The position numbers and the translations under genes are program-made. From Gammaproteobacteria bacterium (GTDB lineage: Bacteria > Pseudomonadota > Gammaproteobacteria > Chromatiales > Chromatiaceae), in the NCBI GenBank assembly GCA_038146785.1, contig JAYQSI010000019.1, forward strand, positions 161,370 to 225,369: DNA of 64,000 bases, written 5' to 3'. Shown here piece by piece: positions 1,188 through 63,769 of the stretch (positions within the stretch are counted from its first letter, which is position 1; each line of letters begins with the position of its first letter). The notes beneath the pieces were generated by a model. It had not been told where the DNA came from and ran no database searches. It was given only the letters and a program-made list of their open reading frames with translations.

Positions 1188-2304
1188 TTGATACCCCGTT
1201 TGACCATTTATAAAGCATTGTTACGCGATGTTTTTAAAGCCTTTTTTGTTGGTGATTTGATTTCCTTCTGATCATTTTTTCGATGAAGTTTGTAAAGATT
1301 TTCCAGAAGGTTGCTGAGGGAGCTTTAAAGCACCCTGATGCTGTTTTTCAGATGATTGGGATTGAGATGATTAAGGTATCTGGCATTATCGTTGCCTCCC
1401 AGCCTTCTTTTTTTGCCTTACTTTGGGTCTTGGCAAGTTGTATCGAGATTCTGAGATGACAGCCCTTCAGGCCAGTGGAATTAGTTTGCCGCATTTACCT
1501 CGTTCTTTGATATGGGTTGCATTACCTGCGACGATCTTATCTGGGTTTCTTGTAATGTTTGAAGCGATTCCTTGGGCAAACAAGCAAATTGAGAACTTAA
1601 AGCTTTTGATGAAGCGTTCGGATATCAGCTTTGTTCAGGCAGGTAAGTTTAATGAATTCACGCGAGGAGACTTAATTGTTTATGCAGAGCGCGTTGATCC
1701 AGAGACCGGCTATTTAAAGAATGTTTTTGTTCAAGATCGCCAGAATGGCGAGTTGGGCGTGATTTAGTTCTGATGAAGAGGCGTGGCATTTATTGATGAA
1801 GAACTCTTGGATAACTTTGTTGTCTTAGCATCAGGTAATCGGTATGAAGGGTAAGCCGGGGCAGCGTTGATATCAAGTCTCTGATTTTCTCATTATGACT
1901 GAGAATACATTTTCGTCAAATGAACTTAAAGGTCTGGAGAATGGGCGCTGAAGATACATCTGCGCATTGATTAGCTATGGACTCATTGATGGCTAGGGCT
2001 GAAATTGCCTATCGCTTATCAGTGCCTTTGGGTGTCATCGTTTTTACAGTTTTGCTTTTGTTTTATCAAAATCTGAACCGCGAAAAGATGTGCATGGTCG
2101 ATTAGGCATTTGCTGATTCTTAGTTTATTTTATTTTTTTAATTTGCAGCGAGTTGGTGAGCGTTGGATTGAAACAAGATGTTTTGCCGCATCAGATTGGA
2201 TTGTTTTGGATTTTCTTGATGCTCGTTGTTTGGGAATCGATGATGTATTTTGATTCAGTGAAATGGCGAAAGCTTCGTAAAAATTGCTTAGTGGTATTAA
2301 GTAA
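1188..2304 (+). pseudogene. lptF: LPS export permease LptF, fragmented by many frameshifts (real decay or sequence errors)
   Basis: TTG at 1188 after AAAGGA gives (M)IPRLTIYKALLRDVFKAFFVGDLISF then stop. ORF 1423..1767 (GLGKLYRDSEMTALQASGISL...PWANKQIENL) is typical of the YjgP/YjgQ family. Homology continues in changing frames to the TAA at 2302-2304. pepA-lptF-lptG synteny. Confidence 0.7.
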
Positions 2305-3379
2305 ATGACTATTTTGGAGCGATATATGTTGCCAGAACGGTCACCCGTGCAACTTTGACCACCTTAATTGCTCTTTAGTTGCGCTATTGGTTTTTTTAAT
2401 TTTATTGATGAATTTGAAGATGTTAGGCACTGGGCTACGAGATTAGTGATGCCTTTATTGTTGGGTATTATCTGCACCGCGTTTTTATTTGAACTTTTCC
2501 CAGTTGCAGCTTTGATTGGTGCTTTTTTGGCGTCGGTGGTTTGGCTAAGCCACAGTGAAATAACAGCGATGCGTTCGGTGGGGTTTTCAGTAATCATTTA
2601 TAGCAAAATCACTTGGCAAAGATGGGTGCAGTTCTTTTGATGGTCTTTGTTGCGCTGATGGGTGAGTATTTTGGGCCCATCGCTGAGAACTTTGCTCAGG
2701 ATTATCGCCACGCAAAATTACATGGCACGGTAGTGATGCGGTCTCGTCATGGCTTCTGGGCTAAAGACGGAGCGAACATTGTCAATATTCGAAATGTTTC
2801 TACTGATAAACACTATTCAATAGTCAAAATCTACGACTTTTCAAAAGATAACACCTTGTCACTGGCAAGCAAAGCTAAACAGTGGTGATTTTAAGAATGA
2901 AGAATGGTTTTCAAAGATATTCAACAAACAGAATTTAGCTGAGCTTATAACTAAGGAATCGTCATTTAGAATCAGCAGATTGGAAATGCAAATTTTAATG
3001 TCGATTTGTTATCTGGTGCAGTTGTTCGCCCAAGTATGCTCTCAACCTGAGCTGATTGAATTCATCGATTTTTGATCATAACGATCAGAATGCCAATGAG
3101 TATGAAGTTGCTTATTGGTTGAAGCTAGCGACCCCTTTTGCTGCATTTGTAATGTTATTTTTGGCTATACCCTTCGTGATTGGAAGTCAGCGAGACGGCT
3201 CAAAAGGAAAGCGAGTTTTTATTGGGGCATGATCCTGGGCGCGAGCTTTTTCTTTTTGCTGAGTCGAGCGATGTCATCTGGCCAGTGGCGTTTACAGTGT
3301 CAGCCCAGGTTTGATGGTGATTATTCCGTCACTTATTTTCTTAGGTTCAGCCCTCTGGCTACTTAAACGCGTCCGCTAA
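2305..3379 (+). pseudogene. lptG: LPS export permease LptG, fragmented by many frameshifts (real decay or sequence errors)
   Basis: ATG at 2305 gives MTILERY... directly after the lptF stop. ORFs 2368..2640, 2613..2888 and 3115..3366 carry YjgP/YjgQ-like pieces in different frames. The alternative final frame ends ...ALWLLKRVR* at 3379. Confidence 0.7.
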
Positions 3380-40909: not shown

Positions 40910-40911
40910 CA

Positions 40912-41535
40912 ATGAGTACGTATTTATCTGATGACGAACAAGCAGAAGCGCTGAAGAAATGGTGGAAAGAAAACGCCGTTTCAATCATCGTGGGTGCAGG
41001 TCTTGGTTTCGGCATCATCTTTGGCTGGCAGGGCTGGCAAATGTTTCAAACCTCGCAAGGTGAGGCAGCATCACAGTTGTATGCACAGGTCGAGCAGGCG
41101 ACTAAATCGGGCGCTGATTTTGATAACACAGCAACACAGTTAAAAGCTGACTATGCCGGTACCGCTTATGCGAGCTATGCAGCGATGCAACAAGCTAAAG
41201 CAGCTTACAAAGCTGGCAATCCAGATCGCGCACGTTCTGAACTAGAGTGGGTTATGGCGAATGCACCTGATCCCGTTTTAGTGGATTTGGCGCGTTTACG
41301 TTTGGCAGCATTGCTTGTCGATCAACAGCAATACGATGCGGCTAAAGAGGTTATCGCAGCGGCAGGCACCTTCATGAAGGGTGACTTCGAACAGCTCCAA
41401 GGTGACATTGCGCGTGCGCAAGGTGACAAGGTTGCAGCACTCGCTGCTTATCAAGCCGCGGCATCCAGTGGTGTGACCGATATGCGTTTGCTCAGCATGA
41501 AGATTGTTGATGTCACGCCAGTTGAGGGTAAATAA
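40912..41535 (+). CDS. YfgM-family membrane-anchored TPR-like protein
   Basis: N-terminal DDEQAEALKKWWKENA + single TM. Conserved position between hisS and bamB. Confidence 0.7.
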   Translation: MSTYLSDDEQAEALKKWWKENAVSIIVGAGLGFGIIFGWQGWQMFQTSQGEAASQLYAQVEQATKSGADFDNTATQLKADYAGTAYASYAAMQQAKAAYKAGNPDRARSELEWVMANAPDPVLVDLARLRLAALLVDQQQYDAAKEVIAAAGTFMKGDFEQLQGDIARAQGDKVAALAAYQAAASSGVTDMRLLSMKIVDVTPVEGK

Positions 41536-41545
41536 GTTGCACTCA

Positions 41546-42697: not shown

Positions 42698-44100
42698 TGC
42701 TTCCTGTTATTGCATTGGTCGGCCGCCCGAATGTGGGTAAGTCGACCCTGTTTAATCGTTTAACACGCTCACGAGATGCCTTGGTTGCTGACCAGCCGGG
42801 TATTACCCGTGACCGTAAGCATGGCGTGGGCAAGATTGGCGCGCATCCGTATGTCATCGTGGATACCGGTGGTATTAGTGGTCAAACCGACGGCATTGAT
42901 GTGCTGATGGAAAAGCAGGTGAAACACGCGATTGGTGAGGCGGATCATTTGATCTTCTTGCTAGATGGTCGCGATGGTATGACCGGTGCTGATGAAGCGA
43001 TCGCAGAAGAGCTACGTAAAACCGGTAAACCGATCACCGTTGCAGTGAATAAAAGTGAAGGCTTGGATAAAGCGGTCGCTGGCGCTGATTTTTATGCCTT
43101 AGGTTTAGGTGATCCGCATCTGATTGCTGCAGCGCATGGCGGCGGCGTAAAACATTTGATTAATACCGTTCTCGATACCTTTATCTGGCCAGATAAAAAG
43201 GATGAAGAAGAGGAAGTCGAGGAAGAAGATAAGGGTATTCAAATTGCACTTGTTGGCCGCCCGAACGTGGGTAAGTCGACCTTGGTGAATCGCTTACTTG
43301 GCGAAGACCGTGTGGTCGCGTTTGACCGCCCGGGTACAACGCGCGATTCGATTGCAATTCCTTTTGAGCAAAACGGTAAGCAATACACCTTGATTGATAC
43401 AGCGGGTGTTCGCCGTCGCGCGCGTATCGCTGAAGCAATTGAAAAGTTCAGTGTGATTAAAACGCTACAAGCGATGGAGCAGGCTAACGTTGTTATGCTG
43501 ATCCTTGATGCGCATCAGGGTATCAGTGAGCAAGACGCGACATTGGCTGGCCACGTGCTCGATAGTGGTCGCGCGCTCGTGGTGTGTATCAATAAATGGG
43601 ACGGCCTAGATAGTCACGAGCGTGAGCAGATTAAAAGCGAGATGCTGCGTCGTTTGCCTTTCTTAGCTTTTGCGGAATGGCGTTTTATATCTGCTTTGCA
43701 TGGCAGTGGTGTAGGGCATTTGATGGAAGCGGTTGATCAGGCCTATAACGCTGCGATGATTGACATGAAAACTCCAGAGCTCACTCGTATTCTTGAAGAG
43801 GCTGTTCAAGAGCATCAACCGCCAATGGCACGCGGTCGTCGTATCAAGCTGCGTTATGCTCACCAAGGCGGTAAGAATCCGCCAATCATTGTGATTCACG
43901 GCAATCTAACTGATGCTGTGCCACCAACATATCAACGTTACTTAATGAATCGTTTCCGTGAATGTTTTGATTTACACGGCACACCATTACGTATCGAATT
44001 TAAAGGTGGCGAGAATCCTTTTGAAGGCAGAAAAAACACACTGACAAAACGTCAGGTGGATAAGCGTCGCCGCATGATGAAGCACGTCAAGAAGCGTTAA
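42694..44100 (+). CDS. der: Ribosome-associated GTPase Der (EngA), two G domains + KH-like
   Basis: [19 protein letters not shown] and [18 protein letters not shown]. Confidence 0.95.
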
Positions 44101-45443
44101 TCAGTCTTCTTGCTTGTCTTGGTGACTGTCGCGCTTAGCGTGCCTTCTGATAAGCGAACATCAATCGAATCACCCGATACGACATCACTGCTTTTAGTGA
44201 TCACTTTGTTTTTGGCCGTACTAACGATGCTGTAACCACGCTCAAGTGTGGCTAATGGGCTAATCGCATGCAGCTCACGGGAATGAGCGCTTAATTTCTC
44301 ACGACGTGCCTTGAGTGCTGATTCGGTAGATCGCGTTAGGCGACTTTGCATAGATGAAAGTCGTTCTTTGAATCGCTCGATAATCGCAGAAGGTCGCTGC
44401 TGTTGCAGTCGTATAGTTAAGTTGGCCGCTGCTGTTTGTTGCTTCAATAAAGCCCTAGAGACTGAGCGTTGAAGTCGCACTTGGATTTCATCCAGACGTT
44501 GTTGCTGTTGTTGAGTGCGCGTACGTGGGTGTTGGCGCTCTAAGCGTTGCTCTAGTTGTTGTAGCTGTTTTTGTTTAGCCGCTAAGCTTTGTTGCGTGCG
44601 AAGGGTTAATTGCGCATTCAATTGATTTAAGCGCTGGCTGACTTGGGTCTGATCAGGTGAGATCAGTTCAGCCGCAGCAGATGGTGTCGGTGCTCGACGA
44701 TCAGCGACAAAATCGGCAATGGTGAAGTCGATTTCATGTCCTACTGCGGAGACGATAGGAATGCTAGCAGCGGCGATATCGCGTGCTAATTGCTCATCGT
44801 TAAATGCCCAGAGATCTTCGATGCTACCGCCGCCACGGGTTAAGACAATCACGTCATCTTGTTGACGCTTAAGCGCATTGCTCAAGGCTTGGCGGATATC
44901 GGCAGGTGCCTCAGCGCCTTGTACCAAACATGGATAGATAGTGACTGTCGCGGTTGGGTGTCGGCGTGACAGGATGTTCAACATGTCTCGAATCGCAGCG
45001 CCACTCGATGAGGTGACGATGCCGATATTCATCGGATGAGCTGGCAGCTCTTTTTTCAGTGAGGTCTCAAAAAGGCCTTCTTTCTGAAGTTTGAGCTTGA
45101 GTGCTTCAAAGGCTTGTTGCAGAGCGCCTTCGCCAGCGGGTTCCATGGACTCAATGATGAGTTGGCAATCACCGCGCGGCTCATAAAGCGCCACTTTGGC
45201 CCGCGCAATCACTGAGTCACCATCTTTGGGCTTAAAACGCAGCAGGTTGGCTTTGCCTTTAAAGAGGGCGCAGCGAATTTGGGCGTGGGAATCTTTTAGG
45301 CTGAAGTAAAGATGACCGGAACGGGGAATGCTGAGATTCGAGATCTCGCCCTGCACCCAAAGCAGGGGAAAGCTGCCTTCCAAAACATGACGCAGCTCGC
45401 TGTTGAGTCGGCTGATGCTAAAGATGTCACGATTTTCGGTCAT
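44097..45443 (-). CDS. xseA: Exodeoxyribonuclease VII large subunit
   Basis: [29 protein letters not shown]...[16 protein letters not shown]. Divergent to guaBA as in E. coli. Confidence 0.9.
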
Positions 45444-45445
45444 AC

Positions 45446-45472
45446 ATAAAAAAGCCGGGCTAAGCCCGGCTT
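45446..45472 (-). terminator. Rho-independent terminator of the lipoprotein gene
   Basis: Minus strand: AAGCCGGGC-TTA-GCCCGGCTT + T6. Confidence 0.7.
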
Positions 45473-45493
45473 CCGTGCTGAGTTATCAACAAA

Positions 45494-45838
45494 TTATTGA
45501 TAAATGTAGCTTGGGTTGCCAGCGCCAACTTGAGTTTTCGCTTGGCTCTGAGCAGTTTTAGCTTGGTAGTAAGCCGCGATAGCCTCGCTCTGAGCTGCAG
45601 CAAATTTGCCTTCAGCAACCAGTGCTTCTGCAGCTTTCAGTATTTTGCCGGTGTCACGCCATTCAAAACCGGCCTTTTTAGCTGCTTTGTTTTCAGCTGA
45701 AGCAGTTTCAATAGCAGCTACTGCTGAGCGCTTTTCTGGCTCTGGTGCTTGAGTGTAAGGCTCTTTTGCAGCGTTGCTTTGACAGCCAGTGAGGGTAAAA
45801 GTGGCGGCAATCGCGCCAGCGATCAGTACTTTTTTCAT
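45494..45838 (-). CDS. Small Ala/Lys-rich lipoprotein, unknown function
   Basis: MKKVLIAGAIAATFTLTGCQS lipobox. 114 aa. Confidence 0.6.
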   Translation of the reverse strand: MKKVLIAGAIAATFTLTGCQSNAAKEPYTQAPEPEKRSAVAAIETASAENKAAKKAGFEWRDTGKILKAAEALVAEGKFAAAQSEAIAAYYQAKTAQSQAKTQVGAGNPSYIYQ

Positions 45839-46000
45839 TGTTTTCTCCGTTCCTAGGGTGTCATGTCTTTATTTTGGCTTCGTGGGTGTCATGACTCACT
45901 CAGAAGCTTATTGTGAAATTATTTTAACCCACTTTGAGAGTATTTGTACTTTCAATTAGTTAGGTAATTTGGTTTACCTAAATGCAGCCAAATTCTATAA

Positions 46001-47506
<1,506 letters not shown>

Positions 47507-47593
47507 TTTAGGATCGACACAGATTAATGGCGCAGTTGTTGTAGTTCTACGACCTGCGCCTTTTTATTTATAGTTTTAAGTTAAGTTCACACC

Positions 47594-49171
47594 ATGACAA
47601 ATGATATTCATGCTCATCGCGTTCTGATCATCGATTTTGGATCGCAATACACTCAACTGATTGCGCGACGTGTGCGTGAGATCGGCGTGTATTGTGAGAT
47701 CTGGCCATACGATAACTGTGAAGAGCAGATCAAATTACAAAACCCGCGCGGCATCATCTTAAGTGGTGGTCCAGAAACGGTAACTGGTGAGAACACACCG
47801 CGTGCGCCACAAATCGTGTTTGATTTAGGTGTGCCAGTACTGGGTATTTGTTACGGCATGCAGACGATGGCGCAACAGCTCGGTGGTCGTGTTGAGAACT
47901 CAGATAAGCATGAGTATGGCTATGCCCAGGTGCGTGCTCATAACCACTCCAAGTTGCTAAAAGATATTGAAGATCACACAACTCCTGAAGGCTACGGCAT
48001 GTTGGATGTGTGGATGAGTCATGGCGACCGCGTCGCTGAGCTGCCTGAGAACTTTGTCAAAATTTGTAGCACCGATAACGCACCTTTAGCTGGCATGGCA
48101 GATGAAGCGCGTAACTACTACGGCATTCAGTTCCACCCAGAAGTTACCCATACCAAGCAGGGCGGTCGTATTCTTGAGCGTTTCGTGCGTGATATCTGTG
48201 GCTGTGATGCATTGTGGAATCCAAACAACATCATCAACGACAGCATTGCGCAAATGCAGGAGCAAGTTGGTGATGGCAAGGTTGTGTTGGGCTTGTCTGG
48301 TGGCGTTGATTCGTCAGTTGTCGCAGCATTGCTGCATAAAGCAATCGGTGATCGTCTGACCTGTATCTTTGTGGATAACGGTTTGTTGCGTCTTAATGAA
48401 GGCGATCAGGTGATGGCGACCTTTGCAGAACACATGGGTGTCAAAGTGATCCGTGTGAATGCAGAAGATCGTTTCTTATCAGCATTAGCTGGTGAAGCTG
48501 ACCCAGAAAAGAAACGTAAAATTATTGGTAACTTGTTCGTTGATATCTTTGAAGAAGAAGCGAATAAGCTCGAAGGTGTCGACTTCCTTGCTCAGGGCAC
48601 TATCTATCCTGACGTGATTGAGTCTGCAGGTGCAGCTTCAGGTAAAGCGCACGTGATTAAGTCTCACCATAACGTGGGTGGCCTGCCTGATTACATGAAG
48701 CTCAAGCTCGTTGAGCCATTGCGTGAATTGTTTAAAGACGAAGTGCGCAAGGTGGGTGTGGAGCTCGGTTTGCCAAGCGACATGATTTATCGTCATCCAT
48801 TCCCTGGTCCTGGCTTGGGTGTGCGTATCCTCGGTGAGGTAAAGAAAGAGTACGCAGATATTCTTCGCCAAGCGGATGCGATTTATATCGAAGAGCTGCG
48901 TAATGCGAATCTCTACGATGAAGTTAGCCAAGCCTTTACGGTTTTCTTGCCCGTGAAATCTGTTGGTGTCGTCGGTGATGCGCGTCGTTATGAATATGTC
49001 GTGACGTTACGTGCTGTTCGTACCATCGACTTTATGACCGCAAGCTTTGCGCATCTGCCATTTGAATTTTTAGAAGAAGTCTCACGCCGCATCATCAATG
49101 AAGTGCATGGCGTTTCTCGCGTGGCTTACGATATTTCGAGCAAGCCGCCAGCAACTATTGAGTGGGAATAA
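47594..49171 (+). CDS. guaA: GMP synthase (glutamine-hydrolysing)
   Basis: ...GICYGMQ...[11 protein letters not shown]...PPATIEWE. Confidence 0.95.
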
Positions 49172-49252
49172 GGCTTTACCGTCTGAGACAAGGCTTCTAG
49201 TGAGTTTTGGGTTTTAAGGTTAATTTATTCATCTCTTATTAGAGGTGAATAA

Positions 49253-49504
49253 ATGACAGTACTTGCTAGTCACGATATCAGTCGCATCATTGAAATGGCT
49301 TGGGAAGACCGGACGCCGTTTGAGGCGATTCATGAAGACTATGGTCTTTCTGAAAAAGACGTCATTAAATTGATGCGATCAGAGATGAAGGCGAGCTCGT
49401 TTCGCATGTGGCGTGAGCGTGTCACTGCGAGAAAGACTAAGCATTTATCGAGACGAAACTTTACCGTCGGGCGTTTCCGTTGCTCGACGCAAAAGATGCG
49501 ATAA
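49253..49504 (+). CDS. Small conserved protein (TIGR03643/DUF2805-like, from memory)
   Basis: 83 aa. IIEMAWEDRTPFEAIHEDYGLSEKDVIKLMRSEMKASSFRMWRERV. Confidence 0.6.
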   Translation: MTVLASHDISRIIEMAWEDRTPFEAIHEDYGLSEKDVIKLMRSEMKASSFRMWRERVTARKTKHLSRRNFTVGRFRCSTQKMR

Positions 49505-49533
49505 AAAGGCCGCTTAGAGCGGCCTTTTTGTTT
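49503..49533. terminator. Bidirectional rho-independent terminator
   Basis: AGGCCGC-TTAGA-GCGGCCT with an A-run and a T-run. Confidence 0.7.
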
Positions 49534-49681
49534 ATGCGGCATGTGCTTTGAGCATGCCGAACAATTGATCCTTGAGGTTGAGCCGCGCTTTTTTACGCTC
49601 CTCAAGGTAATCGTCGCTGGTGTTTTCAGCGCCAGTTTCAATGCGAAAACTCGTGGTGAAGATCGTGTTTTTCGCCTTGCA
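49532..49681 (-). pseudogene. DUF465 (YdcH-like) gene remnant: frameshift plus apparent internal deletion
   Basis: Minus strand: AAGGAGC RBS, then ATG at 49681-49679 gives MQGEKHDLHHEFSH*. A second frame gives FRIETGAENTSDDYLEERKKARLNLKDQLFGMLKAHAA*. The total is only 50 codons, versus the 70-80 I expect for this family. Confidence 0.55.
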
Positions 49682-49699
49682 TGATATTGCTCCTTGTTA

Positions 49700-51394
49700 T
49701 GTTATGACGACTGTCACTCTATTTCGGCGAGAGATTTATAAGGAGTTTGGGGATAGACGATGTTGTTGGGGTAATTTCATGTCATGGATTTGCCGGTATT
49801 TGGGGGAACGCTATCGGTAGCTTTATTTGGCGACTCAAGTAATTGGATAAATAACACTGACAGAATTGAACAACTTTTTATACAAATTATAGGGGTTGTT
49901 GTTTGTTTTTTATGGTCCTTCGGGCTTACTTTATGTTTTAGCAAGTTTTTCAATAAAATTTTTCCTTTACGAGTATGTATGGAAGACGAATACAAAGGGT
50001 TAAAAATGTCTCAGAGCATGGAGCGTCAACGGAGATTTTAAATCTTTTTAGAAGACATGGAGAAAAAAAGTACGGGAGATTATTCTAATAAAGTATTCGT
50101 AGAACCTTTTTACGGAAATAGGCCAGATAGCTCAAAAGTATAACCAAGTAATAGAAAAAATAAAAAAACAGAAAAACAATTACAAATTAGCGCAATACAA
50201 TCTCGTTCAGTCATTGACACTGCTTTCGACGCTTTTATTTCTGCAGATTCGTCTGGTATAATCAAGAAATGGAATAAAAGAGCGGAAGAGATATTTGGTT
50301 GGTCTGAGGAGGAGGCTTTAGGCCGTGGGTTCCATAGCTTAATCGTCCCCTGAAAAGTATCGAGAGGATTGCAGATTGGGTATAGAAAGGGTTGTAAATT
50401 TAGTGGGGGTTACCAAAGCTAAGCAAAAGATGGAATTAATGGCTTTGCATAAAGACCATCGCGAGGTTCCCGTAGAAATTTCTATATCGCCTTTAGTAAG
50501 CGGGGAGAAGATTTTATTCAACGCTTTTATTTCGGATATTACGGAGCGTCGGAATTTGCAAATTCAACTAAATCATGTTCAAAAGCTAGAGTCGATAGGC
50601 CAACTGGCGGCTGGCATCGCGCACGAAATCAACACGCCGTTACAGTTTATAGGCGATAACATGCTTTATCCAGGATTCGATGGAAGAGTTGATCCCTTTA
50701 ATAAACGAATAACAAATATTGAACGGGAATCCTGAAAACGAAAAACTTTCTATGGTCCTTAAACAATTAGAAGAAAGATATGAAGAGAAGGACGTTGGTT
50801 TTTTACTACAGGAAATACCCGATGCGATAGAACAGTCTTTAGAAGGAATCGGTCGAGTAACCAAAATAGTAGGCGCCATGAAGGAATTTTCGCATCCGGG
50901 AATGAGCGAGAAAAAGTTGAACGACATAAACAAAGCGATAGAAACAACGATCAACGTATCGCGTAATGAATGGAAATACGTTGCGGAATTAGATACCGAC
51001 TTAGCCTCCGACCTTCCTCTCACTCCCTGTTATTTAAACGATATCAACCAGGTGATATTAAACTTAATTGTTAATGGGGCTCATTCAATAAAGGATAAAT
51101 TGAATGAGAGCGAAAACGATAAAGGAAAGATTGCGATCCGTTCAAGAATGAAGGAGGATAACGTAGAAATTAGAATCGCGGATACGGGAATGGGAATACC
51201 CGAAGAGATTCGACCGAAAATCTTTGATCCATTTTTCACAACCAAAGAGGTTGGGCGGGGGCACAGGACAGGGATTGTCTATCGCTCACACAATTGTCGT
51301 TAAAAAACATCAAGGAACAATCGATTTCGAAACCGAAGTGGGTAAGGGAACCATTTTTACTATTCGACTTCCAATTAACAAAGAAAATATCTAA
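49700..51394 (+). pseudogene. 5'-truncated, frameshifted Amt(ammonium transporter C-terminal third)-HAMP-like linker-PAS-HisKA-HATPase fusion (ammonium-sensor histidine kinase type)
   Basis: Frames around 49,700-50,030 read ...LYFGERFIRSLGIDDVVGVISCHGFAGIWG..., ...GGTLSVALFGDSS...QLFIQIIGVVVCFLWSFGLTLCFSKFFNKIFPLRVCMEDEYKGL, then (frame change) VSEHGASTEILNLF. Next come DMEKKSTGDYSNKVFVEPF..(I)AQKYNQVIEKIKK (HAMP-like). PAS: IDTAFDAFISADSSGIIKKWNKRAEEIFGWSEEEALGRG. H-box: LESIGQLAAGIAHEINTPLQFI. ATPase: [74 protein letters not shown]. At least 5 frame changes. Confidence 0.7.
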
Positions 51395-51616
51395 AAATGG
51401 TTATGTAAAAAATTAAAGTTGACTTTGGAAGGAAAGTTCTGAAAAAGCACTTTTCAAAGCTTAAAATTTGTTTTTGAAACTCGGTTTTTATTTAACGTTT
51501 TCTGGATTTAACGAATAAATTTTTAAAAAGAGAATTATTTATTTTTTTTGTAAAACTATTTAAATGATCAAATACTGCCGTTTTCTACCCAGTCGTTTTA
51601 TTTCTCTTAAATCGTT

Positions 51617-52733
51617 TAAGGCTCGTCAAGTTTTGTTGAATTTAAAATCAAAGAATTTTGCCAAATGAACGCGTTGTTAATGGCTGCGGGGAAATTTGTT
51701 TGATGATTTGGAGGAAAGTTCTGAAAAGCGACAGCTTCAACTATCGGATAGGGTAATCCCAATAGTCTTAAAATGTCCATTTCTCAGGCTATTTGGGTAT
51801 GGGGCGCTCCAAAAAGTTTCGATTTCGGTTTCATAATATTTTCATTCGCGCAGTTTGTTTCCCATGAAACTTTTTTAAACTTTTTCAGGAAAATTCAATA
51901 GACATATAAATTTACCGATTTCATGAAACAGACCAGCTGTGAAAGAAAATTTTGAATGTTATTATCCATTTTTTCTGTTTTTCGCCAGCGATAAGCATAA
52001 ATATCCTACTTTTGTAAGCTGTTTGCGTAAATTTTTTTTTACTATAGGCTCAATGGATTTTGACACATTTTGTTTGAGAAAACCTGATGCTGTAAAACCA
52101 ACGATTGAATAAAATCCAGTCCTAAAACTTGAAACGCCCCTACTGGCGTGGAAACTTTTGAGAAATTCCGAAAAAGCTGAATTTGCCACTTTAAGAATAT
52201 TAGCGGACATACTGATGTCTTTAGAAATGATATTTCCAATTGTTTCCAGCGTTGAATTCTCAGATTTTAACTCTTCCATTAAGTCATAATATAATTCTGG
52301 GAGGCTGGGTAATGAATCAATGTTTAACAAAGTTTCCTTTAATTTTTTATCTTGTAAGTGATCATTTAACGACAAACTGGAGTTTATGGATTTTTTCAAA
52401 AAATCAAAATCGCAGGGTTTGGATAAAAACTGGTGCATTGAACCAAACGCTCGAACAAAAGCTTTTCCTTCCGTCTGACCGGATAAAATAAAGCGTAACG
52501 TGTCTGGGTACAAATTTTTACTTGATTTAAAAACTCCGCTCCATCCATTCCTGGCATACGCATTTCGGAAACGACTAAGTCGAATTTCTTTTGCGTGAGT
52601 ATTTTAAGGCCTTTTTCGCCGCTATTTGCGAATTCGCATTCCCATTCCTGTCGTATGGAACGAACTGCTCGACGAATGGAAATTAGTATTGAAATATCGT
52701 CGTCAACAAAAAGAATGTTTAATTTTTTCCCAT
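51617..52733 (-). pseudogene. Response regulator REC-HDOD, frameshifted
   Basis: Minus strand from ATG 52733: MGK(K)LNILFVDDDISILISIRRAV...DLVVSEMRMPGMDGAEFL. ORF 51962..52513 has DSLPSLPELYYDLMEEL...IISKDISMSANILKVANSAF (HDOD). It continues as AGLFHEIGKFI...FGAPHTQI..LGLPYPIVEAVAFQN in other frames. The 3' end is approximate. Confidence 0.7.
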
Positions 52734-52780
52734 TTTTAATCGCGACAAAATCTATTTGAGTTTAATTTGGGGATCAGGTT

Positions 52781-54789
52781 TTATTTTGAGTTTGAAAAGA
52801 CATTTTGTGAAATGAGAGAAATGATTTGGTCAATAAGTTTGTCTGGGCTGTAAAGGCCTTTTGTGAATATTTTTTGAACTCTGTTATTTAACTGTAAGCG
52901 ATCTTGATTTGTTAGATACTTTGCGCTAAGAACTATAATTGGTATAGATTGCCAAGAGAAGTTTTCATCAATCTTGTTAAGTAACTCAAATCCATCCATT
53001 TCTGGCATCATTAAATCAAGAATAATTAAATCCGGTTGCTTTTCAGTGATTTTTTGGAAACCTATTTTCCCATTTTCCGCTTCGCGAACATTGAAATTAT
53101 TTTTCTAATATTGATCCAAGCAATTCTCTTTGTTGAGGGTCGTCGTCAATTATTAGAATTTCCGAGCAGTTTCTTTCGTCTAAATATTTTTTTAAAACTG
53201 AATTTAATTGGTTCCTATCTATTGGTTTTAAGAGATATTCCGCAGTTCCCAAAGAGTAGCCCTTATTTTTATCGTCAATCATAGACAAAATTATGACTGG
53301 AATTTTAGAAAGTTCCGAATCCTCTTTTAATTTTGTTAATACATTCCATCCATCCATTTCTGGCATTTGAATGTCTAAAACAATAACAGAAGGAGAAGTT
53401 CTTTAGCTCTTTTTATACCGTCTATACCATCATAAGACGCAAAGTACTGATAGCCTTTTTTACTAAGAGCCCACATCATCAAATCCTGAATAACTGGATC
53501 GTCGTCGATTACTAGTACTGAAGGATTTTCTAAAACATTTGGCAGCGAATCGATATATATAGGTAATTCAATATCGTCGGTTTGAGATAGTATTTTTTCT
53601 GAAATTGGAATTTTGATCGTGAACGCTGATCCTTTATCTATTTTGCTTTGAACGCTTATGTCTCCTCCCATCAATTGCGCAAACTTTTTGCTTATTGCCA
53701 ATCCCAGGCCCGTGCCGCCATATTTGCGAGTTGTGGAGGAGTCTGCTTGAGAAAAATTTTGGAATAACTTGCTCATTTGATCTAAAGTCATCCCTATTCC
53801 AGTATCGGTAATTTTGAAATAAACCCAATTTTCGCCTTGGGAACGTGCTTTAGTTACATCTAGAGAAATTTTACCTTCATGAGTAAATTTTGTCGCGTTA
53901 TTTAATAGGTTTAAAAGAATCTGTTTCAATTTAGTTACATCTGTTGAGAGTTCTTTTAAATCATTTGGCATATTGATCGTCAAGGAATTATGATTTTTAT
54001 CAAGGTTAGGTTGAACAATAGAGACCACTTCTTCAACTAAGTTCGATACATTGCAAGATTCGATAAATAGTTCCATTTTTCCGGCTTCAATCTTGGAGAT
54101 ATCTAGAATATCGTTTATGAGTTTTAATAAATGTTTTCCGGCGTCGTTGATTTTTTTCAAATCAGGAACAAAGTATTCTAGGCAATTGGTTTCAATGGCA
54201 ACATCTTCCAATATCTCGCTGTAACCAATAACGGCATTTAATGGCGTTCGAAGCTCGTGGCTCATCGTGGCAAGAAAAGCGCTTTTAGCATGATTTGCAG
54301 TCTCAGCTTTCTCTTGAGCTCGTTTTAGTTCGCTATTGGTAACCATTAATTCCCTAGTGCGTTCTTCAACTTTATTGGTTAACGTACTATTAAACTCTTT
54401 TATTTCATCCATATAGGATTTCAACCGAAGAGAGTTGTTTACTCTTGCGATCAGTTCCTCAAGGTTTATAGGTTTATTCAGTAAGTCGGTTGCTCCCAAA
54501 TCTAATGCCTTACGCTTAACATCCTTGTCGTCCAGACCAGTTAACATTACAATCGGGATATCGTTAGTTTCTTTTTACCTCTCAATTCTTTTAGTAATTC
54601 AAATCCGTCTTTTGAGGCATTTTTATGTCGGAAATTATCACGTCGAAATTTTTTTCGTTATTTGTTTTTATAGCGTCATCGACGTTTGAAACAAAGGCCA
54701 TTTCCCATTTTTGATTGTAATCTTAAAAGCCTTCTCAAGCTTGAAAGAATATGAGGCTCATCGTCTACGAATAGAATTTGGTTTTTCAT
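52781..54789 (-). pseudogene. Hybrid sensor kinase REC-coiled coil-HisKA-HATPase-REC-REC, frameshifted
   Basis: ATG 54789: MKNQILFVDDEPHILSSLRRLL... ORF 53375..54547 has [52 protein letters not shown] and VLVIDDDPVIQDL. ORFs 53097..53366 and 52781..53011 each have MPEMDG receiver cores. Confidence 0.8.
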
Positions 54790-55005
54790 GGCTTTTTTTA
54801 ATAATCAGTAAAATTACGATAACAATATTCTTTAAAAATGTAAAAAGCAAAAATGATACCATCGAAAATTAGAGCTAAAACTACTGTTATTTCAATATGT
54901 TTAATGCTTTGGAAATAGTTTTCCAGTTTCCCATTCACCAAATTTGGTGAATTCCCAAATGTTTTTATTATTTTCGGTGAATTTATTTTCGAATAAGTTG
55001 GAGGT

Positions 55006-56416
55006 TCAAAAAACTGTGAGGACTTGATTCTTTGAGAACGGATTACAAAAGTTTTTGCGATTTAAATTGTATTTTTGCATCTTATTGCGGAGAGTTTGAC
55101 GGGGGATTTGAAGAGACTCTAGAACCATTGAAATATTGCCGTTATTTCGTCTTAATTCTTTTTCGATAAGTTGTTTTTCAAATTCGGTTATCCTATCTGC
55201 AAGGGGAGGCAGTTTATCTTTTTCTATTTGAATGTTGCTATGGGAGTTTTCAAATCCTGAGTTAATTTCCATAGGAGGCATGTCTAATCCAAGCATATGT
55301 TTTTCTGCTTCATTTTTTAATTCTCGTATATTTCCCTCCCAGTCTCTTTCTAAAAGCTTGTCGAATAACCTTTTGGATAATTGGGGAATGGATTGATTGT
55401 ATCTTTGCAGACCTCTGCCACAAAATGCTGAAATAAAATAGGAATATCTTCCTTTCGATCGCGCAACGGTTGAATTTTTATTTCAACCATATTTAAGCGG
55501 TAATATAAATCCTCTCGGAATTGACCAGTTTTTGAAGCTTCTTTTAAATCTATTTTGGTAGCCGCTATAACTCGTATATCTAGCGAAATCAATTTATTGG
55601 AACCCATTCTTTCCACAGTTCGTTCTTGAAGAACGCGGAGTAATTTGACTTGAAGGTTTAAAGGCATACTTTCAATTTCGTCTAGAAAAACAGTTCCCTG
55701 ATTGGCGAATTCAAATTTACCAATTCGAGTTTTAATCGCTCCCGTAAATGCTCCAGATTCATGTCCAAATAGTTCGCTTTCAATAATTGATTCTGGGATA
55801 GCGCCGCAATTAATAGCTACAAAGTTGCGCTCTTTTCTTTTACTATTTTGATGTAAGCATTTTGCAATTAGATCTTTTCCTGTTCCTGTTTCCCCTAAAA
55901 GCAAAATATCCGCATGAGATTGGGCTACATTTTGGACAACATGCCGAAGTCTTTTAATTGATTCTGATTTCCCAATAATTTGATTTTCTATATTATTTTG
56001 ATTGGAAACCTCAGCCCGAAGTTCTCTCAACTCCATGACGAAATTCCTTTTTCAAGGGCGCGTTTGACTACTTCTAAAAATGTTTCTATTTCAGTAGGTT
56101 TTTCTACGAAATCATAAGCTCCATCTTTCATCGCTTGGACGGCCATGGAAATATTTCCCTTTCCCGTAATTAATATGACAGGCAATTCAGGATCGATTTT
56201 TAGAGCTTGTTTCATTAAAGTAAATCTATCCATTTCAGGCATCATTACATCTGAAATTAGAATTCCAGGCCAATTATTATTTAATCTTGAAAGGACTATT
56301 TTTGCGGAGTCAAAAATTTCAACTTCATAACCTGAGCGTTCTAAATTTCTTTTGTAGCCTAACGCCACATTTTTCTCATCGTCTACGATGATTATTTTTC
56401 CGTTGATTTTGGGCAT
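55006..56416 (-). pseudogene. NtrC-family sigma-54-dependent response regulator (REC + AAA+ + Fis-type HTH), split into three frames
   Basis: 56027..56416: KIIIVDDEKNV...SDVMMPEMD. 55350..56036: LLGETGTGKDLIAKCLH...[15 protein letters not shown] (GAFTGA)...RVIAAT. 55006..55296: NGNISMVLESLQIPRQTLRNKMQKY. Confidence 0.85.
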
Positions 56417-57143
56417 ATTAAATTTTTAACTTTTGGTCGCTTTTCATTCAATATTTTTAGGATTATTACAAAACAGGTTTGATAAAATCAATATTAAGTT
56501 GTTTTGTTGAGACCAATGGCTTGATATTGAGAATAAACGCTGCCAAATAAATAATCTATCCAATTTTAAAGGCAATATTACGACTTTGTAATGATAAAAA
56601 TGGCCTTTGCTTTTTATAAGGATGAAAAATTTAAATAAAAGCGCAAACTTAGTTTACCTATCCAATTTATTAAGACTCAGGTTCCATGAGCGCTTTTTTA
56701 TGATAGATAGAACTGCCGGGTTTGATTTTGTTAAGCGGATGTTTGATAAATGAATCTTATATAACAAACCGAGAAATAAAGTTTAAGATGAAAAGTAAAT
56801 TTATTCTAGTAGATTGTGAGATTAAAATGGGGGAAATTTTAAATTGTTAGAAATGTTTAACAATTCTACTAAGGGGATTCATTGAGTGTTTTATTATAAA
56901 ATTAATTTAGAGAAATATTAATCTGGAAAAAGTTTCAAAATGTTGGCAACACAAGTAAAAAATTAATTTCTGAAACCCAGTTTTGACCTTTTTCGCTTTT
57001 ATAAAAAGTTTGAGCCAAATACTCTAAACCACGGGTCCTAAATGCCGTAATAAAGATAATCCATTTAATGTAATTTCTATTGAGAAAAAGTTTTAAATTA
57101 AAGTGATAAGTTAATTAAAAAAGATAGATTTTCGAACTCAGAT

Positions 57144-57190
57144 GCGACTTTGATAAAACCTTGATAGAAGTTTCTTCCCAAAACAGAAAT
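57144..57190 (+). repeat. Copy A of a ~47-nt direct repeat (partner at 60167-60213)
   Basis: GCGACTTTGATAAAACCTTGATAGAAGTTTCTTCCCAAAACAGAAAT versus GCCGACCTTGATAAAACCTTGATAGAAATTTCCTCCCATAGCAGAATT. About 40 of 47 positions are identical by eye. Confidence 0.6.
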
Positions 57191-57267
57191 TTTTGATAGT
57201 AACTGGTTGATGGAAAAGTATATTGAATTAACTTAGTTCAACGTCAGTAATTCTAGTATTAAGCAAA

Positions 57268-59790
57268 TTAATCTGTTGATTGCACATTCAATTGCTCTAA
57301 AACGCGCCTCATTCCAACCAAGTCGAAATTTTTCATTAAAACTGTTAAATGCTTTTTTAAATGTTTGCAATCCTCATTAATTTTGTCTAACTCATCAAAA
57401 CTAGCTTCAAGCATTGTTATATTGCCCAAATCCATTGCCTCAAATAGTTTTTATGGGGGTTTCGGAATATAGATGTTTGATAATTCTATATCTAATTCAT
57501 TATTTTTTTTCTCATCTTGAATTTCTTCTTTCACATACTCAAATTCTATGTCAAGAAGACGAAGACGCTGAAGGTTTTCATAAATCTGTTCAATAAGAAA
57601 GGGTTTGGTAATAAAACCTTCACATTCTAGATTATCATAGCCTCCTCTTTGGCGATCCAATGCGGAAGCCGTGATGATGACGATCTTGAACCGATTCTTG
57701 CCAAATTCTTTTTGAATTGCATGAATGGTTTCTTCCCCATCCATAACCGGCATTCGCATATCCATAAAAATAATATCTGGAGTATGTTTACGAACTTTTT
57801 CCAAGCCATCTTTGCCGTCAACTGCTTGAATGACTTCTACCTTCAAATCGGTAAGGATCAGTGATAAGACGTCGCGATTTTCTTTAACGTCGTCAACAAC
57901 AAGAGCTTTAACCTGATATCCTTCTGCCAAGCAAAGGATATTTTGACTTTGTTTAGACTGTTCTGAGTTGTTTTTGGACGCTGGAGGTAATAATAAAGTA
58001 AAGTAAAAATTTGAACCTTTGTGCAGTTCAGATTTCAACTTTAATTCAGAATTCATGAGTTTCAATTGCTTATTAGAAATTGCTAGTCCCAGTCCAGTTC
58101 CTCCATGTTTGATGCCTGAATCTTCCTGATGGAAAGGTTCAAAAATAGCTTGCCGATCTTTTTCAGCAATACCTTTTCCGGTATCAATGACCTCGAATAG
58201 ATAATGATTATTTTCTAGAGCCTTCACATTAAACGATACTTCGCCAGAGTCTGTAAACTTGACGGCGTTTCCAATCAAATTGATCAATACCGCTTTTAAT
58301 TTGTCTGCATCTCCAAAGAGAAGACACTGTTCTTCCAAATTATTAACATTCCAATTTAATTCTTTTTGCTGGCAACGTAACTCAAACATTTGTGAAATTT
58401 CTTCAACGGTCTCTTTAAGATCAAAATTCGTTGGATTAAGCTCCAATTTACCAGCTTCAATTTTTGATATATCAAGAATATCATTGAGCATATTGAGAAG
58501 ACTTATACCGCTGGTATTGATTGTTTTTAGCGCTTGTTTTTGACCTTCATTTAAGTTTTTTCCCTTTAAAAGTATCTGAGCATATCCCAGAATCGCATTC
58601 ATTGGTGTACGAATTTCATGGCTCATATTCGCTAGAAAAAGGGATTTGGCTTGATTGGCGCTTTCAGCTAGCTCCTTTGCATTAACTAATTCCTTTGTGT
58701 GGTCTTCTATTATATTCTCTAAGTTTCTATTGAATTTTTAAGCGTCTCTTCAGACAACCTTATCTTTGCAGCTTCTTCGAATATTTCACGAAACCGATTT
58801 TCACTTAATTTCAAAGCCGATAGCGTTTGACTATATTGTTTAATCAATGCTGTTAATAACATCATGGAAATAAGGACGACAAATAGAAAAACCTGTAAGG
58901 ATAAAACGTTATTAGAAGAATTAAGAGTTGTGAAGGGACCTTGACCATTTATGGAATTCCAAATTGATATTATTGTAACCACAAGCGTTGCCGTAAAACT
59001 TCCCAGAGGACCAAACCGGATGGACATCAATAATAAAATCTGTAGTGGAAGGTAAACCAACGCAGGTATGTTTCCGGAAACGCCTATTTCACCTCCAAAG
59101 GCAAACAGGCTTACAGTAATCAAAAGGACTAGTGTAAGACTGAATTCAGCAAACCATTTTATGGAAAAGTTAATATCTCTTCTCTTTATTTCAGATATCC
59201 ATGCTAAGAGAAAAGGAAGAATAACGAGCAAGCCAAGAGAGTCGCCCAGAAACCATATACGCCAAGCAAGCCGATAGTCATAGGTTGACTTGTAGCTCCA
59301 AGGGAAGCCACAGATGCTGAAATCAGGGGTGATAAAAAAACCACAATAACTAAATAAAAATACTGTCCTTAATTTTCTCAAACTGAGGTTTTTTATTTAG
59401 CCTTAAATAACAAATGGAGGGAATCAGTATTTCAATACAATTTGATGCGAAAAAAATAATCGCTCTAACTACAGGAAACCCAGCTTCATTACTCGCAATA
59501 AAATAGGCTGGACAAATAGCATGAATATAAAATGGCCACCGCCGTTTTAGTGTCAAAAACAAAGCCGCAACGACTATTGAGTTAGGAGGCCAGAATACAG
59601 CAATTAACTCTGGTTTAAAGCTGAGCGCTATACCTATTTTGACGCTAAAATAATAAGCGAAACTGACTAACGCTGGGAAAAATAATAATTGAGCAGCAGT
59701 GTTCTGCTTTTGCGGAAGATTCTCTGACTCACTTTCCAATTTATCCCGATTAGGTTTGCTTTCAGTCATTATTATACTTAGCCATGCCAA
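57268..59790 (-). pseudogene. MASE1-type membrane sensor hybrid histidine kinase (MASE1-coiled coil-HisKA-HATPase-REC-C-terminal tail), 2 frameshifts + 1 in-frame TAA
   Basis: 59350..59790 and 58719..59381 form a polytopic membrane domain of MASE1 character. 57451..58626 has [45 protein letters not shown] and [11 protein letters not shown]...DMRMPVMDG. After the TAA at 57451-57453 the same frame continues KLFEAMDLGNITMLEASFDEL... to the stop at 57268. Confidence 0.75.
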
Positions 59791-60166: not shown

Positions 60167-60213
60167 GCCGACCTTGATAAAACCTTGATAGAAATTTCCT
60201 CCCATAGCAGAAT
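60167..60213 (+). repeat. Copy B of the ~47-nt direct repeat
   Basis: See copy A. Both copies contain CTTGATA twice, 11 nt apart. Confidence 0.6.
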
Positions 60214-61679: not shown

Positions 61680-61769
61680 TTACTTTAAGACTTATGCCGT
61701 TTTATGCAGTCTGAATCAATTTTTCGTTTTTTTAATATTTAATTATTTCAAGTAGTTAAAGAAAATATA

Positions 61770-61819
61770 CCTGCTTTGGGAGCAGGGGGTCCCAGGTTCA
61801 AATCCTGGTGCCCCGACCA
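61770..61819 (+). tRNA. tRNA-Pro(UGG) 3' fragment only (anticodon arm to CCA); acceptor 5' strand and D arm absent
   Basis: CCTGC-TTTGGGA-GCAGG (anticodon TGG at 61777-61779), variable GGGTC, T arm CCAGG-TTCAAAT-CCTGG, acceptor 3' strand TGCCCCG, discriminator A, CCA. The upstream sequence ...AGTAGTTAAAGAAAATATA cannot form CGGGGCA or a D arm. Confidence 0.7.
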
Positions 61820-61827
61820 TTAAATCA

Positions 61828-61862
61828 AGGACTTAGTCAATTTTTGGCTAGGTCCTTTTTTT
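61828..61862 (+). terminator. Rho-independent terminator downstream of the tRNA fragment
   Basis: AGGACTTAG...CTAGGTCCT (one mismatch) + T7. Confidence 0.6.
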
Positions 61863-61864
61863 AG

Positions 61865-61886
61865 ATGTAGTCAAAATGTAGTCAAA
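61865..61886 (+). repeat. Perfect tandem 11-mer ATGTAGTCAAA x2
   Basis: 61865-61875 and 61876-61886 are identical. A related AAATAGTC follows at ~61895. Confidence 0.6.
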
Positions 61887-62045
61887 TTATGCCAAATAGT
61901 CGGAGGTGTCGGAATTTAGAACCAGATAAAAAGTGATCCTCAGTTTAAAACATGTTAAAACTTGATAAGATAAGTAAAAGTAGCTTTATTAGAAAAGTGG
62001 GAAAATTTTTATAAAGTTTAAATGAAAATAATCTGATGAGTGAAC

Positions 62046-63188
62046 AAATTCCTATAACGCCAACTGTACTCAAATGGGCAAGAGAAAGAGCTGGTTATAC
62101 GGTTGATGACATTTCCAAGCAATATAAAAATTGAAGCTTTGGGAAAAAGGAGACTCATTTCAACATATAAGCAACTGAGGCGCTTTCTAATAAATATAAA
62201 TGCCCATTAGCTGTATTTTTTTCCCAGATCCCCCAAGCTTGAACCCATCAATAAATCGTTTAGAACTCTTCCAGATTTTGAATTTCGACAGATTCCCGCT
62301 CATTTAAAGAAAATTTTGCATAAAGCCAAGGCTATGCAAATTAATCTTGAAGAATTAAATGAAGGTGTTAATCCATCTAAAAACTAATTTTAAGTGATTT
62401 AGAAATTAAAGTTGGTACATCTTTTTCTAAAGTTGTATCTGAGGTTAGGTCTTATTTAGGCGTAACACGAAAACAACAGTTTTCATGGAATAACTTTGAT
62501 GTTGCATTTGAAGCTTGGCGAGGAAGTTTTAATTGATCACGGTATTTTTGTTTTTAAGGATTCCTTTAAGACCTCAGAGTTCTCGGGTTTTTGTCTTTTT
62601 GATAAAGAATTTCCTATTATTTATATTAACAATAGTAACTCTAAAACAAGACAGATTTTTACGTTGTTTCATGAACTAGGCCATTTGTTATTTGGAATAA
62701 GTGGAGTTGATAAGGAAAATAACGATTATATAAGGCGCCTAAAAGGAGACCAAAAGAAAATTGAGGTTTTTTGTAACAAATTCGCGGGTGACTTTTTAGT
62801 ACCTAAAAGTGAATTTACAAAATTAATTAATGAGGTTTCTTTGTTCGATGAGAAAAATATAAGAAAACTGTCTGACAAATTCAAAGTTAGTCGAGAAGTA
62901 ATTTTAAGAAAACTTTTAGATAGAAATAGAATTGATCAAGATTACTATAATAAAAAAATTGAAGAATGGAAGGGGGAAGCTCAACCACCTCAAAAAGGGG
63001 CGGGAGGCGATTATTACTTTACTCAAATAATTTACCTTGGAAAAACTTACACTCAATTAGCCCTAAGTAAATTTCATCAAAATAAAATAAATGCTGAAAA
63101 GCTCGCAGAATATTTGAACATTAAGCCCAAGAATATTAGTAAGTTTGAAGATAAATTTTTGGTGGACGAGCATGATTTATGTATTTGA
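62046..63188 (+). pseudogene. XRE-type HTH fused to ImmA/IrrE-family (M78, COG2856) zinc metallopeptidase; N-terminal third heavily frameshifted
   Basis: MSEQIPITPTVLKWARERAGYTVDDISKQ..., then in shifting frames ..KLWEKGDSF../TYKQL/EALSNKYKCPLAVFF/FPRSPKLEPINKSFRTLPDFEFRQIPAHLKKILHKAKAMQINLEEL... The clean ORF 62496..63188 has IYINNSNSKTRQIFTLFHELGHLLF (HEXXH). Confidence 0.8.
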
Positions 63189-63636
63189 TACTTCTCCTCT
63201 AATAATTTTATCCAGAAATTTTTATAGAAAGAGATTCCCAACGTTATGGGAAAAATTTGATTCCTTGATTGCAAATAATAAAATAATATCTACACGGGAA
63301 AGCTTTTGAAATCGAAGAGCAGGATGATGATTTATATAAATGGGCTAAGTTACATGAAGATATTTTTGAGATTCCAAATATTAAAGAAGCCGAGTTTATA
63401 AAACAAATTTATGCCATTCCTCATTTCCGCGATAATATCGAAAAGCAAAAATTCTAAAAGGGGGACTTAATGCTGATCCATTTGTAATAGCGAAAGCTTT
63501 TAACTATGGCGCTAGCGTTGTAACTTTAGAAAAAAAGAAACCCAATGCTGCTAAAATTCCTAATATCTGTGAGCATTTTAATATTATTTGTATGAACTTA
63601 GAAAAATTCATGGAAAAAGAAAATTGGAGTTTTTGA
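63172..63636 (+). pseudogene. DUF4411 (PIN-like) protein, 2 frameshifts; overlaps the upstream peptidase gene by 17 nt
   Basis: MIYVFDTSPLIILSRNFYRKRFPTLWEKFDSLIANNKIISTRE.. / EIEEQDDDLYKWAKLHEDIFEIPN...IYAIPHFRDNIEKQK / GGLNADPFVIAKAFNYGASVVTLEKKKPNAAKIPNICEHFNIICMNLEKFMEKENWSF*. Confidence 0.75.
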
Positions 63637-63769
63637 TTTTATCCATAAATTTGAATTACTCAAATACTTTTACTTTTGTTTAATAAATAAGTTTTTAAAT
63701 CTTGATAAAGAAGGCAAACTTATAAATCAAGCCGAACTCTTTACCGCCGTAAAGAATTTCTTTTTTTAA

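Follow-up and report, generated by a model that had tools for sequence, protein, structure and literature searches.

A probable assembly chimera joining Nitrospinales DNA to a gammaproteobacterial contig inside an Amt-PAS-histidine-kinase gene

Fusions of an ammonium transporter (Amt) domain to a histidine kinase are represented by Ks-Amt5 of Kuenenia stuttgartiensis, which is an ammonium sensor (PMC5764959), and homopolymer-driven frameshifts have been documented in low-depth assemblies (PMC3277595). Both bear on the DNA analyzed in this work, a stretch of 64,000 nucleotides (nt), hereafter the window, of contig JAYQSI010000019.1 from the gammaproteobacterial assembly GCA_038146785.1, in which DNA of gammaproteobacterial type gives way, in the middle of an Amt-PAS-histidine-kinase gene, to DNA of low guanine-plus-cytosine (GC) content that is nearly identical to Nitrospinales sequence. 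The window resembles the inter-genome chimeric contigs met in metagenomes, metagenome-assembled genomes (MAGs), single-amplified genomes and assemblies of long reads, in that each of its sides has its own organism of origin, the break interrupts a gene that is natively intact, the border is free of mobility functions, sequence quality changes abruptly at the join and frameshifts sit at A/T runs; it differs from them in harboring also a low-quality lptF/lptG patch within native synteny. The comparison with a genomic island is partial: what lies beside core genes, in a region that is variable among relatives, is indeed a block whose GC and tetranucleotide composition deviate over at least 14 kb. 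However, the block has no tRNA target, integrase, direct repeats or amelioration, composition being the sole island hallmark that it displays, and, unlike an island, it is ~99.8% identical to a genome of another phylum and begins at nucleotide 888 of a gene. As for Ks-Amt5, the native Nitrospinales gene follows its design principle, in a fusion of cytoplasmic PAS and HATPase_c kinase modules to an N-terminal Amt/Rh domain, and differs from it by the PAS domains placed between the Amt and the kinase parts; the copy in the window, which is frameshifted and retains only the last ~105 Amt residues and the PAS-kinase part, does not belong to this class.

We consider it very probable that the junction is a technical (assembly or sequencing) chimera, in which low-depth Nitrospinales sequence has been appended to the end of a gammaproteobacterial contig. 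The earlier note on this DNA had described an abrupt composition step near 49.7 kb, and the step is indeed there: GC content is 48.8% in the left core (3400-49500) and 33.7% in 49722-64000. By 1-kb windows it stays within 46-53% over 3-49 kb and, from 50 kb until the window ends, within 30-39%; 100-nt windows locate the fall at 49.75-49.9 kb. The exact position came from comparison with a single contig, JAYOZP010000028.1 (L002; 34.2% GC), deposited as "MAG: Nitrospinales bacterium": the pairwise alignment is 100% identical rightward of 49721|49722 and unrelated leftward, and the blastn high-scoring segment pair (HSP) begins at window position 49722, which is position 10888 of L002. This corresponds to nucleotide 888 (codon ~297) of the native 2556-nt gene. 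The two features on which the argument turns are as follows.

49721..49722, no strand: junction, placed by the L002 alignment and the start of the blastn HSP.
49722..51394, + strand: 3' 65% (codons ~297-851) of an Amt-PAS-histidine-kinase gene with ~10 indels, from three-frame translation and Pfam Ammonium_transp and HATPase_c.

What had been taken for the last third of an ammonium transporter is thus a truncated Amt gene, as proposed, but one that comprises the 3' two-thirds (codons 297-851) of an Amt-PAS-histidine-kinase fusion. Its match covers just positions ~318-393 of the 399 of Ammonium_transp, ~75% of the Amt domain is absent, and ~10 frame changes are needed to read it through. The gene is continuous in three independent assemblies. 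In L002 it is one 851-codon open reading frame (ORF) at 10001-12556, preceded by 10 kb of two-component and MotAB genes; it is also intact in L001 (JGI contig Ga0209992_10000959) and in the JGI metagenome contig that encodes P0001, an 852-amino-acid (aa) Amt-PAS-HATPase protein to which the conceptual translation of 49.75-51.39 kb is 91% identical. The breakpoint therefore cuts a gene that is whole in all three, and in each of them further two-component genes stand ahead of it. According to blastn, no part of the upstream 10.9 kb of L002 is present in the window.

The Nitrospinales identity of the right side does not depend on this gene only. Among the matches listed for species-representative genomes, L002 is the one locus that is near-identical: window 49722-61439 aligns to L002 10888-22553 with 98.6% identity, 30 mismatches and 57 gap openings (blastn). 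Global re-alignment gave 23 mismatches and 64 indels, that is, ~99.8% identity in substitutions over 11.7 kb. The alignment stops at 61439 solely because the fetched locus ends there, and 61439-64000 was assigned by composition. The second independent contig, L001, is 94-96% identical to the right side, and further relatives of the translated kinase were found, one of them named Nitrospinae. The contig of P0001 also carries, after the Amt-PAS-histidine-kinase gene, a response-regulator (RR)-HDOD gene, a hybrid kinase, a sigma-54 activator and a HisKA-HATPase-receiver kinase, the very order of window 51.5-59.8 kb. Tetranucleotide frequencies, whose profiling the earlier note had recommended along with best-match taxonomy, separate the two sides (r = 0.25 between right side and left core) and tie each to its own group: r = 0.98 between the right side and upstream DNA of the Nitrospinales contig that does not overlap it, and r = 0.95 between the left core and a gammaproteobacterial MAG. 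From a correlation of 0.98 with Nitrospinales and of 0.25 with the left core it follows that the right side has undergone no amelioration. Best matches agree, with GuaA going to Sedimenticolaceae relatives and the right-side kinases to Nitrospinales. The window ends within the low-GC block, with no second border in view.

The left side is of a different nature. The genes on which its affiliation rests, together with the gene that follows them, are listed below.

46037..49171, + strand: guaB (46037-47506) and guaA (47594-49171), intact core genes, from ORFs.
49253..49504, + strand: DUF2805 gene, intact (Pfam PF10985, E = 3.9e-36).

Judging from identity and gene order, the left 49.7 kb is the high-quality consensus of an uncultured, marine, Sedimenticolaceae-like gammaproteobacterium. 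The genes der, xseA, guaB, guaA and the DUF2805 gene are intact, in line with the earlier description of guaBA and a DUF2805-like gene to the left of the step, which ORFs and Pfam bear out. GuaA is 99% identical to the JGI metagenome cluster P0121 and 84-86% identical to the proteins of Sedimenticola, other Sedimenticolaceae and a snail endosymbiont. The closest locus for comparison, L168 (Sedimenticolaceae MAG GCA_049447515.1, contig JBMTRT010000057.1), has the order hisS-TPR21-bamB-der-xseA-guaB-guaA-(two extra genes)-DUF2805-DUF465, and window 40572-49172 aligns to it with 92.1% nt identity, 676 mismatches and 2 gap openings; a second relative, L170, differs from the window by 342 mismatches and 2 gap openings. 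An exact match to the GuaB protein exists only on a relative with 92% nt identity, which diverges directly after guaB, and exact-protein look-ups of the DUF2805 protein and of a 391-aa kinase found neither on record. The DUF2805 gene is 87% identical to that of L088 and 86.5% identical to that of L168 at the nt level.

The evidence that the sides differ not only in origin but also in accuracy comes from the way in which the right side departs from its Nitrospinales counterpart. All its large genes are fragmented by frameshifts, their counterparts in L002 and L001 being long ORFs; this is an aspect that the earlier description of the right side had overlooked. If a variable patch at 51.40-51.80 kb is set aside, the right side departs from L002 by ~45 indels of one or two bases and ~11 substitutions, and nearly all the indels are 1-nt length changes in A/T (few G) runs of 4-8 bases. 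The sites of these indels differ from L001 as well as from L002, which makes the window the outlier. Between 49.8 and 52.03 kb the miscalls are mostly +1 insertions, and between 52.07 and 61.3 kb deletions account for 27 of 27. The switch at ~52.05 kb suggests that different single reads, or reads of different strands, lie behind the two stretches, and the uninterrupted series of deletions after an insertion-rich stretch looks like single-read-level support with the error bias of individual reads. Transversions predominate among the few right-side substitutions, unlike in the spectrum rich in transitions that a mutator leaves. Natural divergence, measured between the window and L168 or L170, produces more than 170 substitutions per gap opening, whereas the right side shows fewer than 0.5 against L002; in raw counts, indels to mismatches are 64:23 on the right, and gap openings to mismatches are 2:676 on the left. 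Synonymous and non-synonymous differences of the right side from L001 number 39 and 56, a ratio too weak to part errors from decay.

Homopolymers of five or more bases are 4-5 times denser on the right side, and the comparison has to be made per homopolymer. Right-side miscall rates are 4.6% for 4-mers, 7.3% for 5-mers and 25% for 6-7-mers; applied to the left core, these rates predict ~31 miscalls from its 464 runs of at least four bases, and ~75 over all classes. Yet no broken gene was found in the 46 kb of the left core, where long ORFs with full-length Pfam matches run throughout. Since this expectation is unmet on the left, the discontinuity is not just a matter of more homopolymers in AT-rich DNA: the two sides were determined at very different accuracy. 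The best explanation of the right-side frameshifts is that they are sequencing errors, made where depth was low or the sequence unpolished.

The border itself was inspected for any trace of a mobility event. The absence of an integrase, insertion sequence (IS) or direct repeat claimed by the earlier note was upheld by ORFs, Pfam and a repeat search, and no tRNA lies at the border. ARAGORN found no tRNA in the window, and the lone tRNA fragment reported by Rfam is 12 kb from the border. Nor does the junction recur: in genome, metagenome and viral collections no other contig carries it among the matches listed, a junction 32-mer had 0 matches in viral contigs, and the orthologous junction in related genomes, to which the earlier note had looked as the mark of a real island, did not appear among the matches listed. 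Among the matches listed for gammaproteobacterial species representatives, none has the Amt-PAS-histidine-kinase gene at high identity.

The last bases of the left-hand genome and a second lesion lie immediately to the left of the join.

49503..49529, no strand: perfect 12-bp hairpin (inverted repeat, 100% complementary, 3-nt loop) between the convergent DUF2805 and DUF465 genes.
49532..49682, - strand: DUF465/YdcH gene with an internal deletion, 151 nt, from alignment to homologues and Pfam.
49683..49721, - strand: native upstream region of DUF465, 39 nt, with a ribosome-binding site (RBS) at 49688-49694 and a promoter-like site at 49681-49710.

The hairpin is kept in L168 and is likely a bidirectional terminator. 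The DUF465 gene had been described as an internally deleted remnant with its RBS and start codon still present, and this is exactly what was found: the RBS (49688-49694) and the ATG (49680-49682) are retained, 95 nt are deleted at 49646|49647, and the frame is broken. The first 12 and the last 37 residues are 77-85% identical to YdcH homologues of 78-85 aa, relative to which 32 codons (a gap of 32 columns) are missing. The joined pieces score 27.4 bits against PF04325 (cutoff 25), short of a full-length family match; being 32 codons short and out of frame, the gene encodes no normal member of the DUF465/YdcH family. The possibility that the gene is short but complete, disturbed by just one +1 error in a T4 run, was rejected because of the 32-codon gap. 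Homology to L168 ends at window position 49646, and the deletion point is 75 nt from the junction. The 39 nt at 49683..49721 are the final bases of the left-hand genome. A 28-nt stretch left of the junction occurs once in the window, and its 21-nt core is found in 0 of the 170 fetched loci; an informal by-eye comparison of the 39 nt with nanopore and SMRTbell adapters gave no convincing match. The MAG contig of L168 (1-131) terminates within its own DUF465 gene, 16 nt past the deletion point of the window. This hints at a locus that is hard to assemble, perhaps because of repeats or variation, but could also be due to chance.

On the basis of these data, the following scenario can be proposed. 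The end of the left-hand contig, 39 nt upstream of DUF465, would have been joined to at least 14.3 kb from a co-occurring low-GC Nitrospinales bacterium, most likely because assembly ran on from gammaproteobacterial into Nitrospinales DNA by way of a spurious overlap or of a read or clone that was itself chimeric. The 95-nt deletion in DUF465 probably belongs to the same damaged read or assembly region, and the large Nitrospinales genes would look frameshifted because their support is only low-depth or unpolished and prone to homopolymer errors.

The earlier note had left two readings side by side, a chimeric assembly or co-assembled contaminant and a real island whose border has been eroded by deletion. 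The near-identity to Nitrospinales, the mid-gene start and the one-sided homopolymer indels favor the former. In its original form the latter, that is, an old acquired island with genes decayed to pseudogenes, might seem to account for the foreign composition, the truncated border gene and the many broken frames; it is, however, contradicted by the near-identity to the donor and by the lack of amelioration, which leave room only for a very recent transfer. Indeed, ~45 fixed frameshifts would bring with them hundreds of substitutions, and just ~11-23 separate the block from a donor-like MAG; the excess of transversions, the r of 0.98 with Nitrospinales DNA and the natural rate of substitutions per gap opening in the same window point the same way. 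We therefore regard the old eroded island as excluded, effectively refuted by the indel-to-substitution ratio, and grant it next to no probability. The same negligible weight goes to the idea that the contig derives from one organism and is uniformly error-prone, its right-side errors being denser only through the greater density of long homopolymers: this density is real, but of the ~31 miscalls predicted for the left core none was seen, the near-identity to a Nitrospinales MAG would be left unexplained, and the per-homopolymer count refutes it.

The remaining alternative is a real and very recent cross-phylum transfer, in which at least 14 kb of Nitrospinales chromosome, with a two-component/ammonium-sensor cluster, would have been captured by illegitimate recombination near guaA-DUF2805-DUF465, for example after transduction or transformation; the Amt-kinase gene would have been truncated and neighboring DNA deleted in the process, and the frameshifts would be sequencing errors from ill-covered or unpolished AT-rich DNA. 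Several observations can be read in this sense. Relatives at ~92% average nucleotide identity vary 3' of guaA, in a naturally plastic region, which also counts against a technical join, and the nearby DUF465 deletion suggests local instability; the foreign block contains, at 61.7-63.6 kb, an apparent element remnant (tRNA fragment, ImmA, DUF4411). The lptF/lptG genes, apparently native by synteny, AT-richer and equally error-laden, make it possible that AT-rich DNA is generally ill-covered or ill-polished in this assembly, so that errors may track composition rather than organism, and this weakens the step from different quality to different organisms. Moreover, no same-species comparator across the DUF465 flank was found. 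The data show to which organisms the two sides belong, where the break lies to the base and that the error profiles differ; that the join arose in vitro or in silico, and not in a cell, is what we infer. Nevertheless, a technical join is favored because an identity of ~99.8% in substitutions over 11.7 kb between phyla would need a very short time since transfer, the cargo consists of ordinary chromosomal two-component genes, the cut falls mid-gene, the border carries no mobility function, sequence quality, judged by proxy from the indels, breaks at the very point of the join, the DUF465 deletion is only 75 nt off and, among the matches listed, there is neither an independent contig with the junction nor a gammaproteobacterial species representative with the gene at high identity. 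Co-assembly chimeras are, furthermore, far commoner than such cross-phylum transfers. A real transfer is thus, in our opinion, improbable, yet its probability is not negligible.

The patch that complicates the argument is the following.

1188..3370, + strand: lptF/lptG, a ~40% GC patch with at least 8 frameshifts (LptF_LptG Pfam on reconstructed pieces; tblastn HSPs that hop frames, with P0327 as guide).

The frame switches sit at T6/T7 runs, and the patch is flanked by an intact pepA and an intact RDD-family gene, in a pepA-lptF-lptG arrangement that looks native; its tetranucleotide profile correlates at r = 0.78 with the right side but at r = 0.64 with the left core, so that it may be native or come from another strain. 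No comparator was available among the fetched loci, the best representative being only 68% identical. Both lptF and lptG are essential in bacteria that produce lipopolysaccharide; their frameshifts must therefore be errors, which proves that the assembly holds low-quality patches.

The other genes of the right side, all of them broken, are listed below.

51500..52760 (approximate), - strand: RR-HDOD gene, fragmented (Pfam HDOD); an intact 403-aa ORF in L002.
52781..54800, - strand: hybrid histidine kinase (RR-HisKA-HATPase-RR), fragmented, from ORFs and Pfam; its 671-aa homologue is intact in L001 and on the contig of P0001.
55006..56416, - strand: NtrC-type sigma-54 activator in three ORFs (receiver, AAA+, HTH_8), from Pfam; a single 458-aa ORF in L002.
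57451..59790, - strand: MASE1-HisKA-HATPase-receiver hybrid kinase in three ORFs, from Pfam; collinear with L002 18373-20900.
61753..63640, + strand: tRNA 3' fragment, then frameshifted ImmA/IrrE (M78) and DUF4411 genes (Rfam; Pfam Peptidase_M78 and DUF4411 on a reconstructed ORF).

The tRNA fragment (61753-61808, 29.2 bits) is marginal and partial, and was the only hit of an Rfam scan of the whole window. A helix-turn-helix (HTH) domain is joined to ImmA/IrrE (Peptidase_M78) in a frameshifted gene within 61753-63640, and this segment resembles what is left of an integrated element, or else a pair of toxin-antitoxin type, inside Nitrospinales DNA and away from the junction.

Two structural differences among the Nitrospinales sequences deserve mention. 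Between the Amt-PAS-histidine-kinase and the RR-HDOD genes, extending into the 3' end of the latter, the variable patch at 51407-51800 shows insertions of 18, 13, 12, 8 and 5 nt in the window relative to both L001 and L002; it could represent real strain variation or a badly read stretch. At the point corresponding to window ~51390, the Nitrospinales strain of L001 harbors ~4 kb of extra sequence (12157-16260) between the same two genes, which encodes a protein of 251 aa, a periplasmic binding protein of 714 aa and, in addition, a paralogous PAS-histidine kinase; in the window, in L002 and on the contig of P0001 just one gene occupies this place. The two arrangements represent a structural polymorphism between paralogous kinases.

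On the gammaproteobacterial side, the relatives L082-L087, L088, L168 and L170 share hisS..der-xseA-guaB-guaA, and the genes beyond guaA or guaB differ from lineage to lineage: an RND pump, tadA with a metallo-beta-lactamase-fold (Lactamase_B) gene, two small ORFs, or DUF2805. In this group of gammaproteobacteria the stretch 3' of guaA is a hotspot at which gene content changes naturally. Synteny in relatives (~90% GuaA identity) defined no empty site, the genes after guaA differing in every lineage, and the DUF465 homologues of other genomes stand in unrelated contexts.

As regards the significance of these data, the join would carry little biological weight and is above all a quality-control flag: a contig assigned to a gammaproteobacterium carries Nitrospinales DNA over at least 14 kb, and probably further on beyond the window. 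It also points to a test for such joins that needs no reads, namely the per-homopolymer-normalised indel-to-substitution ratio against a near-identical reference, compared across the break. Were the transfer real, on the other hand, the window would have caught chromosomal DNA passing between phyla almost as it happens, with no vector to be recognised. Taken at face value, the contig would lead to false cross-phylum horizontal gene transfer, false pseudogenes and a wrong gene inventory, in which, for example, the gammaproteobacterium would be given an "ammonium sensor kinase" and sigma-54 regulators that are not its own. In low-GC Nitrospinales the full Amt-PAS-histidine-kinase fusion (L002 10001-12556; P0001) lies beside sigma-54 activators, and, by analogy, the protein of this nitrite-oxidising lineage is a candidate, predicted ammonium sensor built like Ks-Amt5.

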